From Leucoraja ocellata (lineage: Eukaryota), in NCBI GenBank assembly GCA_036785375.1, contig JAWMAR010000013.1, forward strand, positions 9,424,001 to 9,488,000: 64,000 bases of DNA, written 5' to 3'. The translations under genes and the position numbers were made by a program. This document shows, in pieces, positions 4,015 through 59,487 of the stretch. How positions within the stretch are numbered: position 1 is the first letter of the stretch; the number at the start of each line of letters is the position of its first letter. The notes below the pieces were generated by a model, which was not told where the DNA came from, ran no database searches, and saw only the letters and a program-made list of their open reading frames with translations.

Positions 4015-4360
4015 CATTATATTGCAACTTTATAAAACATTCATTTGGTCACACTTGGAGTATTGCATGCTGTTCTGGTTCAGTTCTGGTTCTGCAGTTC
4101 TGCATTATAGCAAGAATTTTGCTGTGATGGAGAGAGAGAGAGAATGCAGAGGAGATTCACCAGGATGTTGTCTCAGTCCTGATGCAAACTCAACGCGAAA
4201 TATGGTCAATTCCTTTCCTCCCACTGGTGTTATTCAACCCGCTGATTTCCTCCAATAGCGTGTCTTTTTTCACCTGGATGTTGCTTGGTTTGGAGGACCT
4301 TAGTTATGGCGAGATATTGGAAAGATTAGGTTTATTTTCCCTGGAGCAAAGGATGCAGTG
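4015..4360 (+). mobile_element. CR1 fragment split by a pLTR insertion
   Basis: LYKTFIWSHLEYCMLFW... then RFT.ML.GLEDLSYGEILERLGLFSLEQR across the insert. Confidence 0.8.
4171..4268 (+). mobile_element. Decayed Penelope pLTR insertion with 15-bp TSD
   Basis: Flanked by ttcaccaggatgttg (4156-4170) and ttcacctggatgttg (4269-4283). Contains 'cagtcctgatgca...cgaaa' and 'acccgctgatttcctcca'. Confidence 0.7.
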
Positions 4361-7029
4361 TTTTTTCCTGATAAAGTACTTTTACAATATACTCCATCTA
4401 TGTAGATAACTACATTTTTCCATATTATGATAGATTTTCCCAGTTCTTGACAATTTATTGAGCTTAATTATCTATCCTTGCAGCTTCCCTGCATCCTCGT
4501 TATCCACAACGTGGCTTAGTTTTGCATCAACAACTTGGAAATATGATATTTGGTCTCCTCGGCTAAAATGATAACATTGTTTGTGAATAGCAGGGGTGCT
4601 GTCACGCCCCTAATCTATCCAATATCTCTCCATAACCCGCCATAACTAAGGCCCTCCAAAGATCCATGAGAATGATCCATTCTTGCCCTTTGGTTTCAAT
4701 CATATAACCAAAAGCAGCATAATGTCATATTGTTAACACAACTGGGGTGTATATCTAGGGTGAAATTTAAAGGGTCCACAGAATCTGTTCCCTATTTTGG
4801 AGACACAACATTTTGTGTTACTGCACGCGTCCTCTTCCATTTTCAAAACTAAACATTTGGTACATTTGAGTAATGGATTTCCTGACATGTATGAACATGA
4901 AGCACTTGTGTATTTGGCTACACAGGTGTAAGTACTGTAATTTACACCGTATAAGCAGAAAACAGATCTGTCACTCAAATGCCTCGTCCGTTCAATATCC
5001 CTAGAACAATTTTTACCTTTCCTTATAAAATTATTCATTAAAACATTTAGGAACAATTGAGGAGGTGTTAAACCCCAAATTTCTATAACGAACTTAAGTA
5101 ATTTTTTCACAAGTTGTGTCGTATACAGGAATAAAGTCTTGGATTCAAATTCTTCTTGTAGTAACAGGTAGCTTCTAAAATGCCCCACTCTTTTGGGTTT
5201 ACAAATATAGCATGCAAATGGATGCTTGTGAATGACTGGATGGAATCTGTGCAGTGCTGAAATGTTAATGTAAACTAAAATGGCAACAAATTATTAAAAC
5301 TTTACAATTTTTTGGGGTTGTTTTTGACTCAAAACATAACTAAAATGCCGTGATAAACCAGTTGAAGAAGTTGACATGTTAAATCATTGCTAAGTCCCCT
5401 GTCTAATTTTCCCAAACTGCAATTGCTACTTTGACAAAAATATGAAATTGATTTGGTTGAAGGGTGTTAAAGAGCCAACAGCTGAATGTCACAAACAATG
5501 AATGGTCCTTGCTTTGAAAAATCAATGGATAGATTAAGCAGGCCATGTGCAACGCATGGTAACCTGTTCACTTCTTGGGATTAAAAAGAAAAATCTTTCC
5601 TTGATTATGCAGTAAAACTTGATGAATATTAAACAATTTCCTAAATCTATGTTTAAAAAGACATTGCATCAAATCAATAATACTGCCAGAAGTAATATTT
5701 AAAGATTTATGTAAACATTATAGAATCTCATCCATTGTGAGTACTAATGATTTCAAGACCATTCTGAAGTTAATAAGTATTACTTGTGTACCCCCAAACT
5801 GTTATCAAAGTAGGTGTTTCACGTATCAGAAGTAGTAGTTGGTTGAAACAAAGAATGCAGTGAATATGAGTTGTTTTTGCAAACAGCTGAACCAGAAATA
5901 GTTACAGTACATTGCTCTTAATCAAGCATTCTAAGTATCCTTGAGTATTCTTTGCTTCTGCAGGCTGTGCATTGAACATTACTGAGTGTACTTACTGCAG
6001 GTATTCAAGAAAATGGCTGCAGAACTGAGACTGACAGTTTCTTGTAGCTGAACTACAATAAATGCATTAATAGAATGTAATTAAGAGATTCAATCAGTGT
6101 GGTGACAGAGATCAAGTGCTTTATGAATGGAGGCACTAGTTTCCATTGATCTATGAGGCACATTCCCAGCTTTTTATGAACTGAACAATGGAGGATTAGT
6201 GCTCAGAACTTAACAATAAACTGGCAATTTCATTATAATAGGGCTGTTAGTCCATTTGGTTGCAGAGTAAATTGGGAGAATAGAATTTCTTTGTGGTGTT
6301 TGGCCTCCACATAGGGGTATAATTACACAGTGGTACCTATCATAGAAGAAGAGCTCCCTTTATGAATTTTGAAGCATTCTTGAGGTGTTTTGTGTCATTG
6401 GAAAATAATCAATTTTCTCAGGTTGTATGCTTTCATTAGACTCAGGCTTGAAATTTAGTGAGCAAGAAAGAGGTCCTGTGGGCAAAGTCATGAATGGGCT
6501 CATCTGCAGTACACTCCGGTTTCTTTAATGTGGCCACTGATAGCTAATGGGCAGGCTCAAATGGAAGTCTACTAGGAAATCTACATTCACTTTCAAGGAG
6601 CATGGATGACTTTGGCACCAATGAGGCAGTACTTTGAGCAAAGGTTCGAAACCATCTTCCCCGAAGTGTTTGTGCATTTGTAGATCCAACTAGGTCTGAA
6701 GATATAACTTGCATTACTGCAGCTGCAGCAGCCATTTATCTCAACAGAATAATGCCACACTTGCTTTCTGTTAGGTAAGCTCAGTTTTGTGGCCATAGAT
6801 TATTGTATGCAAAGGACTTTCAGAACCTTACAGCATATGAGCATCCTACCTAATAACATCACTGGCGCAGTGTTCCAGGAGAAAAGATGTGTTCTATGGA
6901 ACACAAAGCTGCAATTAACTTTAGGAAACCATGTTCATCCTTAGATCTGCAGCTGTGCCAATGCTGGCTATTAGCCAGCTATCCTGGGGAGCGAACTCTG
7001 CAATTATGATGGTGCCATCTGAAGCCATA

Positions 7030-8262
7030 GGTTGCATCACAGCTTGGTTTGGCAACTGCTCTGCACAGGACCACAGAAATTGCGGAGTTGTGGATGCAGC
7101 CTAGTCCATCACGCAAAGCAGCCTATATCCATGCTGCCTTGGGAAAGCAGCCAACCTAATCAAGGACCATTCACACCCCTGTCATTCTCTCTTCTCCTCT
7201 CTCCTGCCAGGCAGAAGATCCAAAAGATTGAAAGCACGTACCACCAGATTTAGAAACAGCTCCTATGCAACTGTTAGCAGATTATTGAATGGACCTCTTA
7301 TAAGCTAAGAATGTATTCCTGATCCCCCAACCTACTTTCTTCTTTCCTTCTTTCATCTCCGCAACATCGCCAAACTCAGACCCTCTCTCACACCGCCCGC
7401 TGCTGAAAGACTCATCCATGCCTTCATCTCCTCCCGACTAGACTATTGCAACTCACTTCTCCTTGGCATCAGCTCCACCTACATCAACCGACTCCAACTA
7501 GTCCAGAACGCAGCTACCCGACTCATCACCCATACCAAATCCTGGCATCACATCACTCCAGTCCTCAAACAACTTCACTGGCTTCCCATCTCCCACCGGA
7601 TCACCTACAAAATCCTGATCCTCACCTACAAAGCCCTCCACCATCTGGCCCCCCCATATCTCACTGACCTCCTCTCCCCCTACCAACCCTCACGGTCCCT
7701 CAGATCCACATCGGCTGGTCTCCTCTCCATCCACAAGTCCAACCGCAGTTTTGGGGACAGAGTCTTCTCCAGGGCAGCTCCCAGGTTCTGGAACTCCCTC
7801 CCCCAACTGACCCGCAATTCCGTGTCCCTCACCATCTTCCAGTCCCGCCTCAAGACCCATCTCTTCACCTCTGCCTATCCTTAGCCCCACGTGCTGTCCC
7901 TTTTCATCTGTGCATTAATTGCCTCATACTGTGTTTTGTATTGAATTCTGTATTTACTTTGTGTACTAGTCATGTCTCTACTATTTATTTCATTCCCCTT
8001 ACATGTTTTTCCTCTACCTGCTAAATTTTTGTAAGGTTTCCTTGAAAGCTTGAAAGGCGCCCATAAATAAAATTTATTATTATTATTATTATTATTACTT
8101 TGCAGCAGCCCTTGCACTTTTTTTCCTTTTACCTGTGCCTTTTCTGTAGCTGTAATACTATATTTTGCATGAATTCATTGTATTTGTGTATGGATGATTT
8201 ACTCGGATAGCACATAGAACAGCCTTTCACTGTTTCTCGGTAAAAGTGAGAATAATAAATAA
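7030..8262 (+). mobile_element. Rex1/Babar LINE 3' fragment, interrupted by L2
   Basis: CITAWFGNCSAQD..., KAANLIKDHSHPCHSLF, ARTTRFRNS..VSRLLN. The 3' UTR resumes at ~8102 and ends in aataataaataaat. Confidence 0.85.
7339..8097 (+). mobile_element. Young 5'-truncated L2 LINE
   Basis: FFHLRNIAKLR..LIHAFISSRLDYCNSLL..LQLVQNAATRL..HITPVLKQLHWLP..WNSLP..FQSRLKTHLF, followed by the 3' UTR and a (TTA)n tail. Possible short TSD tacttt (7333-7338 and 8096-8101). Confidence 0.93.
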
Positions 8263-8421
8263 ATATTGCCAATATTTTAAAATTAACCATTCACCACCCT
8301 GTTCCTTGCATATCATATGCCTTTCTATCTCAGTCTTAAAGAGACTTGCTTCCAACATCCTTGAGAATGAGTGTTTTCAACACTTGCAGACCTCTTAGAG
8401 AAATAACATCCCAGTCATATT

Positions 8422-58144: not shown

Positions 58145-58159
58145 GGTTAATCATTAACC
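58145..58159. promoter_or_regulatory. Perfect HNF1 consensus palindrome
   Basis: GGTTAATCATTAACC matches GGTTAATnATTAACC in non-repetitive sequence. Function is unproven. Confidence 0.4.
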
Positions 58160-59364
58160 ACAGATTTCTACTCAAATCACACATTAATTTAAATGAAATG
58201 GTCGCTCAGAAGATGGAATAAAGTGTTAGTACCATTGGAATTATTAGAAAGGATATACAGGGGTGAAGATTATTAATTAAACCTTGAGTGATCAAACCAG
58301 GGTATGTATGAATGAATGGGACAACAGCCATGAAAGGGAGATACATGTAAAAATATTTAACCTTTTAAAAAATGACCATGTGAAGTTATTTATTAAAGAA
58401 GTATTTGCAATTCAGTGTTAGGCCATGTATTTTGATGTCCTCTTTGTGGAAACTATCCATGAATCTATACTGGGCAAGATAAGTCAACCTGGGTATTTCA
58501 AATGCCCATCACACTGCCACCCTTGGATGTAGCTGGTATTGCAGGCTTGCCTGTGCTCGTGACATTCCCTTATGTTTTCCAGTACATCACCCACCAAATA
58601 ATGCAGGCGGTACCCTGAAAGCCACATGATTTTCCTTTGGGGACGGAAACAGAATACCACTCCCTTAATGTATTTTTGATATGAATATAGTAATTCGCTG
58701 TGAGAATAAAACATTGAGATTTTATCATTATTGTTGAAAATGTTTCAAATTATCTTACCCCCAAACTCTCGTTGAATTGAAGCATGCCGCTGTAGAAAAG
58801 TGCTTTACATGTTGTTGGGGCATTAGGATGAATGCTTTACAGATTTTATTTTCAGGAAAATATTGTACTGATTTAGGCAAATGACTAGAATCACATAATT
58901 GCGCTCAGTTGCCAGTGCTCTGTGAGGAATATGACATTTATTTTTGGCTGATGTATAGTTAATTAGTGTGGGAAAACATGGATGCATGCCCAGACATTAT
59001 ATTACACAGATGTTCAGATTGAAGTTTGGGTTAGCCGTGCACAAAATATTGTAATATATTAAAATTGCACAATAGTTTATGGCTGCAAAAACAGAAGTTT
59101 TTATGTTGGGTTGATTAGATGGTACATATCTTTCAGTTCCTAACCTCCGGGACTCCTAGAGCAGCATTACGCCTGCTGTTCTTGCTAGATTTTTCTAAAA
59201 TTCTATGAAATTAAATAAGCTGCTCAAGACAACTTTTCACTTTAGTTTCTTCTTCAGTCAGAACACCTTGTGTCGCTAAATGAACCCACCTTCTCACAAC
59301 CTTTATTGAGCCTCGTAAACTCTAATCTAAATTGTCGTATCATTGAAAGCAATCATGATTTTAT

Positions 59365-59487
59365 GTTTAGGAGAGAACTGCAAATGCTGGTTTAAATTGA
59401 AGGTAGACACAAAGTGCTGGAGTAACTCAGCGGCACAGGCAGCATCTCTGGAGAGAAGGAATGGGTGACGATTCGGGTCGAGACCCT
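59365..59487 (-). mobile_element. Penelope pLTR copy, truncated within the hammerhead motif
   Basis: Minus strand begins agggtctcgacccgaatcgtcacccattcc. Confidence 0.85.

Follow-up and report, generated by a model that had tools for sequence, protein, structure and literature searches.

Locus and repeat copies

We analyzed a 64,000-nt window of the Leucoraja ocellata genome (assembly GCA_036785375.1, contig JAWMAR010000013.1, positions 9,424,001 to 9,488,000; window coordinates below count from its first base), in which a short repeat carrying a minimal hammerhead ribozyme motif recurs on both strands. One copy closes a 5'-truncated Penelope-like element (PLE) on the minus strand: a frameshifted C-terminal open reading frame (ORF) fragment of Neptune type, with a CX4CxxC linker and a GIY-YIG nuclease domain with the CCHH motif (40583..41115), is followed by a stretch read as a pyrimidine-rich 3' untranslated region (UTR) from the ORF stop to the hammerhead (40500..40582) and by one repeat unit made of the hammerhead and about 80 nt, with the short 3' end and no tail (40390..40499). 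The first-pass annotation had placed the motif at 40463-40490 on the sense strand downstream of a Penelope GIY-YIG ORF, and it does lie about 90 nt past the stop of this frameshifted, 5'-truncated fragment, with its core (40490 to 40463) broken at G12 (GAAA to AAAA) and CG changed to UG. The repeat is almost certainly the pseudo-long terminal repeat (pLTR) of an autonomous Neptune-type PLE, and its many solo and head-to-head insertions were likely made (probability about 0.7) by reverse transcriptase (RT) starting in the RNA leader and running off the 5' end of the RNA just before the hammerhead.

Both core boxes are kept by 2 of the 15 copies in the window, two solo units on the minus strand: 31547..31650 (boxes at 31644 to 31617), the nearest to intact, and 22676..22779 (22775 to 22748). 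The boxes had been reported intact at both places, and they are; however, stem II is broken in the latter and the 10.1-11.1 pair is G-U in the former, so that the window holds no fully canonical copy. Four further solo units carry a tail. The copy at 15354..15487 (minus) belongs to the youngest subfamily and has U4 of the core mutated (CAGAAGA), and that at 30080..30209 (plus) has C3 mutated (UUGAAGA) and an 8-nt internal deletion. The copies reported from 16545 and 59365 are truncated within the core: 16543..16665 (plus; profile match from 16541) is cut within CUGAAGA and flanked by an 11-bp target-site duplication, and 59363..59487 (minus; profile match 59364-59491) is cut at stem II and has a mutated GAAA. 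A head-to-head inverted pair at 10281..10440, one arm tailed and the other tailless, has lost the hammerhead and has a target-site duplication of 13-14 bp; a second, old and decayed pair (3181..3342) was recognized by profile and alignment. The rest are faint: 4189..4271 (plus; profile score 24 bits, core unrecognisable), 41442..41526 and 44133..44235 (both minus, placed in the oldest subfamily by profile and subfamily mixture), 17010..17086 (minus; profile E-value 0.008) and 63660..63760 (minus), a possible, very old copy below threshold and visible by alignment only. The window copies are dead, decaying passengers.

The window was scanned for the core, compared with itself and searched by BLAST, and copies were then sought with an iterated profile hidden Markov model, with reversed sequences as the control. 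The same search was run on 800 kb of the same genome, sampled as 80 stretches of 10 kb at round-number positions on large contigs. The final profile gave 15 matches in the window, 440 in the sample and 0 in the reversed-sequence control. Seven of the eight main copies listed earlier were strong by profile, the one at 4171 being the faint copy above; the fainter ones at about 3172, 41440 and 44140 were matched too, while 63660 was not, and the earlier list had overlooked the pair at 10281-10440 and the copy at 17010-17086. Its density of one copy per 6-8 kb is therefore replaced by the counts of 15 per 64 kb in the window and 440 per 800 kb, or 1 per 1.8 kb, in the sample, and the window is poorer than average. 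Unit copies make up 5.1% of the sampled bases, and the number of matches extrapolates to about 1.9 million, roughly a fifth of them with intact core boxes. An Rfam scan of the window gave no hammerhead model up to an E-value of 1; its matches, a microRNA on the fold-back at 10349-10406 and one snoRNA, were set aside as chance.

An intact parent element

A longer piece of the window-type ORF retrieved 90 proteins, of which the best was a zebra-shark protein (61% identity), in keeping with the cartilaginous-fish host proposed earlier, and its homologues carry the RVT_1 and GIY-YIG domains. When a shark homologue was searched against the genome, 60 of the 68 matches listed were free of stop codons, and we retrieved 20 of these 68 for inspection. 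They include an intact ORF of 1221 amino acids with a proline-rich N-terminal part. Units of about 3.95-3.99 kb follow one another in seamless tandems in four loci (L111, L112, L126 and L128), giving an element length of about 3.95-4 kb, of which the repeat unit is the 3' end plus the leader. In the intact tandems the hammerhead core lies about 110 nt past the stop codon and 164 nt ahead of the next ATG; this position between stop and next ATG identifies the repeat as the pLTR of an intact RT/GIY-YIG element of the same genome, and the Penelope origin first proposed for it stands.

The 1221-aa protein is a single ORF with RT followed by GIY-YIG. Against Pfam, its RVT_1 match (E-value 1.4e-6, 28.6 bits) fell slightly under the cut-off of 29.6 and its GIY-YIG match was weak (E-value 0.012, under the curated cut-off), and Pfam missed both the GIY-YIG fragment of the window and a further piece (locus L025). 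The CX4CxxC and CCHH motifs were read directly; the intact protein has CGRSRCNTC as its linker, and the window fragment, whose last 56 amino acids are 75% identical to that protein, has CNSRKCYTC. The element also forms its pLTR by partial tandem and has an inverted arm and a 30-40 bp tail. The Neptune-type assignment is made from these sequence marks (linker, CCHH nuclease, tandems, inverted arms and tail), which Neptune shares with Nematis. Near-identical arrays with 2-3 full-length units and open ORFs were also seen on contigs C300, C1, C8, C265, C1093, C215 and C3986, and such arrays suggest that the family was recently active.

The unit had first been read as a distinct, ribozyme-tipped non-autonomous one. 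The young short copies lend this no support: they match the pLTR of the intact element exactly over 73 nt (by selection, as described below), and 39 of the 99 run into the ORF.

The hammerhead motif

The motif of the intact elements reads CUGAAGA-A-GGGU-UUCG-GCCC-GAAA-CG-UU, with a stem I of 2 bp. The first-pass annotation described a minimal type I hammerhead in which an A is added and stem III is replaced by a palindromic CG; this form is seen in the intact elements and also in the subfamily consensuses. One stem II had been given as GGGUC-UC-GACCC, which would need a 2-nt loop and is better read as GGGU-CUCG-ACCC. Positions follow the conventional numbering of the hammerhead core, with the bases that it tolerates at N7 and H17. 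Subfamilies were defined with a seven-component mixture (number of components chosen by eye) on the 318 of 455 alignments long enough to cluster, and are 8-24% diverged.

Across the seven consensuses none of 11 core columns varies, against 31 of 84 others (p 0.01). N7 is A or U, H17 is C or U and the extra A before stem II is present in 7/7; the 10.1-11.1 pair is G-C in six and G-U in the oldest (25 copies, weak), and 15.2-16.2 is CG in six and TG in the seventh, where it is probably CpG decay. Changes within the motif fall on N7, loop 2 or H17 or are pair-keeping wobbles, the exceptions being the TG just mentioned, probably due to CpG decay, and two changes in the oldest group, which is poorly sampled. 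In the young subfamily two paired sites differ, one in stem II and one in stem I, each a U-A to U-G change that keeps the pair, and loop 2 is variable. Two-sided pair changes were absent from the well-sampled subfamilies, with one possible case in the oldest, drawn from 2-3 decayed copies. The invariance of the core fits selection on master elements, as evidence of modest weight since other invariant blocks lie outside the core.

Decay among dispersed copies is advanced: of the 440 sampled copies, a count that includes truncated ones, 84 keep the core boxes, 51 also stem II, 36 also stem I and 22 also the palindrome. A low mismatch rate at A13-A15 (4.8% against 9.9% in other A columns, p 3e-5) was considered as a sign of selection on dispersed copies and set aside, because hidden subfamily variants, sequence context or the alignment of A runs could cause it; U16.1 was no different. 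In loci L015, L016, L020 and L021 the hammerhead is locally duplicated inside one insertion, where an intramolecular dimer would be possible, and RNA reads show go-back joints of 33-34 nt that are similar to these duplications.

Ends of the insertions

Ends were mapped relative to C3 of the core. The genome holds 5857 exact occurrences of a 73-nt pattern taken from the youngest subfamily, and the first 100 places listed gave 99 distinct records, 8 of them censored by locus ends. Their 3' ends fall into two classes, 60 at +93 to +101 and 36 at +125 to +137, with 3 elsewhere; the two fixed end points, +93 to +96 and +129 to +133, lie one 36-nt tail apart and both within the leader, upstream of the ATG at +164. 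At the other side, 50 of the 99 copies have their 5' end between +18 and -5, peaking at -2 to -5, where 24 copies end (9.8% per nt at risk, against 0.11-0.15% beyond -11). In the random sample every well-sampled subfamily shows this pile-up in the 10 nt or so upstream of the core. Where RNA reads of a related organism pass into flanking sequence, the joints likewise concentrate at -3 and -2.

Long copies behave differently. From 40 listed matches to the ORF start we obtained 30 loci, of which 29 were scored: 2 begin at +80 and +89, and the other 27 cross the hammerhead and end at -38 or beyond or at the locus edge. Thus none of the 27 ORF-start-bearing copies that reach the core stops between +19 and -10, against 50 of 99 young copies (p 1.9e-7), and with arrays collapsed none of 21 loci does (p 3e-6).

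Target duplications of at least 10 bp flank 27 of the 440 sampled copies, against 1 of 440 shuffled pairs, and head-to-head pairs hold 147 of the 440; together these show separate target-primed insertions. Microhomology is common at the joints. An excess of C before the 5' joint of young copies (12/18 at -2 and -4) was dropped, as it was found in only 1 of 15 simple copies of the random sample. In 7/7 consensuses AGAUGCUG in the body is predicted to pair with CAGCAUCU in the tail (L125:2674-2750). This helix is invariant and so shows no covariation; it encloses the first 3' end and sits just before the second, and its z-score against shuffled sequences ranges from 0 to -3.5.

Origin of the short copies

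We propose the following route. On an uncleaved RNA, RT would start within the leader, at about +94 or +130, the two 3' ends corresponding to internal RT start sites like those found in vitro for the anole PLE. The RNA would have its 5' end at about -3, where RT would run off, and the short cDNA would be joined to the target, often via microhomology or via a second, inverted arm. The run-off step, taken by itself, we hold somewhat less firmly, at a little better than even. TCAGT at -5 to -1 may be the transcription start; it resembles an initiator (Inr). For the long copies, which never begin at -3 when full-length and hence come from other templates, the partial tandems would be templated by multimeric or circular RNA. 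A promoter is reported within the D. virilis pLTR (PMC2377424), and an Inr-like TCACT is noted in a rotifer pLTR (PMC3846280).

One competitor is ordinary 5' truncation, in which RT stalls or folds back for reasons intrinsic to the sequence, either at the edge of the hammerhead or in the C-rich tract that precedes it. The stop rate does rise about 8-fold over the hammerhead itself (1.1% per nt), palindromes are present at +10 and -1, many joints show microhomology, and single motifs have been attributed to truncated PLEs (Cervera 2014, PMC4209133). However, the 27 long copies pass through the identical sequence and not one stops there, which excludes a plain polymerase stall. A structural block would moreover be expected to halt RT on the 3' side of the structure and not past it, and simple, non-inverted copies with target duplications also begin at -2 to -5. 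A variant that hits only newly started RT of low processivity may escape the first objection; overall we regard truncation as unlikely. We think equally little of a SINE-like (short interspersed element) family, in which solo units with their own internal promoter and an RT-binding structure would be transcribed and recopied in trans. Solo units far outnumber ORF-linked ones, especially in old subfamilies, where an ORF match within 450 nt was found in only 1-2 of 35, 48 and 49 copies, some of them doubtful; long copies lack the fixed 5' end; the promoter reported in the D. virilis pLTR (PMC2377424) would serve such units, and rotifer pLTRs are reported to be enough for mobilisation in trans (PMC3846280). 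Yet every well-sampled subfamily has members with the 3' UTR or ORF end, the tail and body variants of young solos recur in ORF-linked copies, and no common host flank was noticed behind the 3' ends of the short young copies listed. No solo-only lineage was found in the 440 random copies or in the young set, the latter picked by identity to the master.

The short copies could also be cDNA of hammerhead-cleaved RNA, or of RNA spliced at a poly-pyrimidine/CAG acceptor ending at -2. The cut site does lie inside the unit, an intron of D. virilis Penelope is reported to end at helix I (PMC4209133), and GTTAGT at -121 and CAG at -2 resemble splice sites (3' UTR of locus L126; window 40492-40582). 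A cleavage-product origin was rejected, as exact matches fall from 6116 to 5857 across the cut site, a loss of 4.2% that includes ordinary CpG mutation, and only 8 of 440 random-sample alignments start at columns 35-37. A spliced template was rejected likewise, since the window and 1.36 Mb of loci contained no spliced junction, and no spliced skip was seen among the joints listed in RNA reads of the related organism. Short copies keep the core upstream of the cut site, so self-cleavage has no visible part in making them, and we consider either origin very improbable.

Several observations weigh against the run-off of RT at an RNA 5' end. RNA starting at -3 predicts that some full-length copies begin there, and 0 of 27 do, so that a second class of template is needed. 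No pile-up of read starts was found at either stringency in four RNA runs of the related organism, whose reads come mostly from copies inside host transcripts. The 5' ends are spread, with 19 of 99 between +1 and +18, and do not fall on one base; the TCAG-T-CTGA palindrome at the core edge could itself attract inversion joints, and inverted pairs hold 23 of the 52 short copies. In the young sample both arms of a pair are counted and two duplicated loci are kept; its members were chosen as exact matches to the master, so a lineage made up of solo copies could not show in it. On the side of the ribozyme, the invariant blocks of the seven subfamily consensuses include some outside the core, and the predicted fold of the monomer is not a hammerhead, with a stem II probability of at most 0.05. 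Misfolding of the monomer is expected, since such motifs are reported to need dimers (PMC4209133) and a PLE hammerhead is reported to need protein (PMC11167929); we predict that this hammerhead, should it work, would do so in full-length transcripts, either as a dimer or aided by the protein of the element. The same four RNA runs showed no pile-up of read ends at the cut site, which is uninformative. A strand asymmetry was seen in single-cell RNA runs.

It is tempting, though rather doubtful, to extend run-off priming to two template classes of one PLE: a linear RNA starting at the hammerhead edge, and for long copies an endless template, a circle made by hammerhead cleavage and ligation. If so, the linear class would have yielded strong-stop-like mini-insertions numbering in the order of a million, with all unit copies together covering about 5% of the genome, and the intact 1221-aa element would allow a direct test, in a vertebrate, of the circle proposal made by Cervera and de la Pena.

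Other elements in the window and the sample

An element of about 700 bp resembling a miniature inverted-repeat transposable element (MITE), with terminal inverted repeats of about 70 bp and a head-to-head pLTR pair inside, was found three times in the 800 kb (L063:8122-8830, L049:2325-3018 and L094:3573-4131), so that a pLTR pair has been amplified again by another element. Within the window, two related Tc1-like DNA transposon remnants with inverted ends lie at 20022-21481 and 24302-25225, with a weak Pfam match to Tc3 transposase at 20571-21020. A long interspersed element (LINE) fragment with an RVT_1 match lies at 1252-1695 (minus), and 7309-7884 (plus) presumably resembles a LINE ORF2 C-terminus. 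A second dispersed SINE-like family occupies 18456-18589, 37793-37942, 50497-50667 and 63312-63444 (families D9 and D16; inverted I6, I18 and I22). Long terminal inverted repeats bound 63000-63302 (87 nt at 94%) and 56817-57948 (114 nt at 93%), both probably MITE-like. The interval 9186-9920, GC-rich at first and then purine-rich and of low complexity, may be a promoter or first exon and had no Pfam match; 15 candidate host-gene frames gave 0 Pfam matches.

Relation to described elements

The ribozyme itself is unremarkable, as dispersed PLE ends with minimal hammerheads were described from fishes in 2014 (PMC4209133). The family, which is still intact, is valuable for the large fossil record that it offers of PLE integration. 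Its two fixed 3' ends, a 5' edge confined to short copies and the lack of a trace at the cut site limit the possible modes of PLE copying and the possible functions of the hammerhead, whose purpose has been called still unclear (PMC8557442). Titles and abstracts in the literature outside Repbase and subscription journals gave no description of this pLTR family or its 5' edge.

The minimal hammerheads reported from metazoan PLE pLTRs (PMC4209133), among them Xena, Poseidon and Neptune elements of fishes, have in common with ours the core boxes, the extra base between 9 and 10.1, the G10.1-C11.1 pair, the palindromic 15.2-16.2 and the location in the pLTR, and they too are mostly dispersed as single motifs or opposite-strand pairs. 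Stem II has 4 bp here against 7-8 in Schistosoma, and stem I has 2 bp, as in D. virilis. The copy number differs widely, with about 1.9 million extrapolated matches here against the 4,000-9,000 motifs given for coelacanth and Xenopus; cartilaginous fish are not named among the hosts in the sections of that paper available to us, which also propose circular templates for tandem formation.

With the endonuclease-bearing (EN+) Neptune and Nematis PLEs (PMC8557442) the parent element shares RT followed by GIY-YIG with CCHH, a CX2-5CxxC linker ahead of the nuclease, reported as absent in Penelope/Poseidon, partial tandems, an inverted 5'-truncated arm and an optional tail of 30-40 bp. It differs from the elements described there in its long 1221-aa ORF and in its pLTR insertions of unit length, which have a fixed 5' edge and are in extreme excess.

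PAc, a Poseidon element of Anolis carolinensis (PMC11167929), also has two internal RT start sites bounding a tail, shown in vitro for PAc and deduced here from the 3' ends. Uncleaved RNA is reported as its dominant template, and no RNA-seq reads are reported to end at its cut site. The present element belongs to a different clade and is known from sequence alone, and both its 3' ends lie in the leader upstream of the ATG and not in the ORF.

Non-LTR retrozymes (Li et al. 2026, bioRxiv 10.64898/2026.07.22.740005), reported in one chondrichthyan, are likewise derived from PLE pLTRs, carry a type I hammerhead and are non-coding. They are tandem repeats with a hammerhead in each unit, whereas the window has single units or head-to-head pairs, and no array of short units was found among the copies inspected; local hammerhead duplications occur in a few loci elsewhere (L015, L020). 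The copies described here are also tied to an autonomous master, which sets them apart from those retrozymes.

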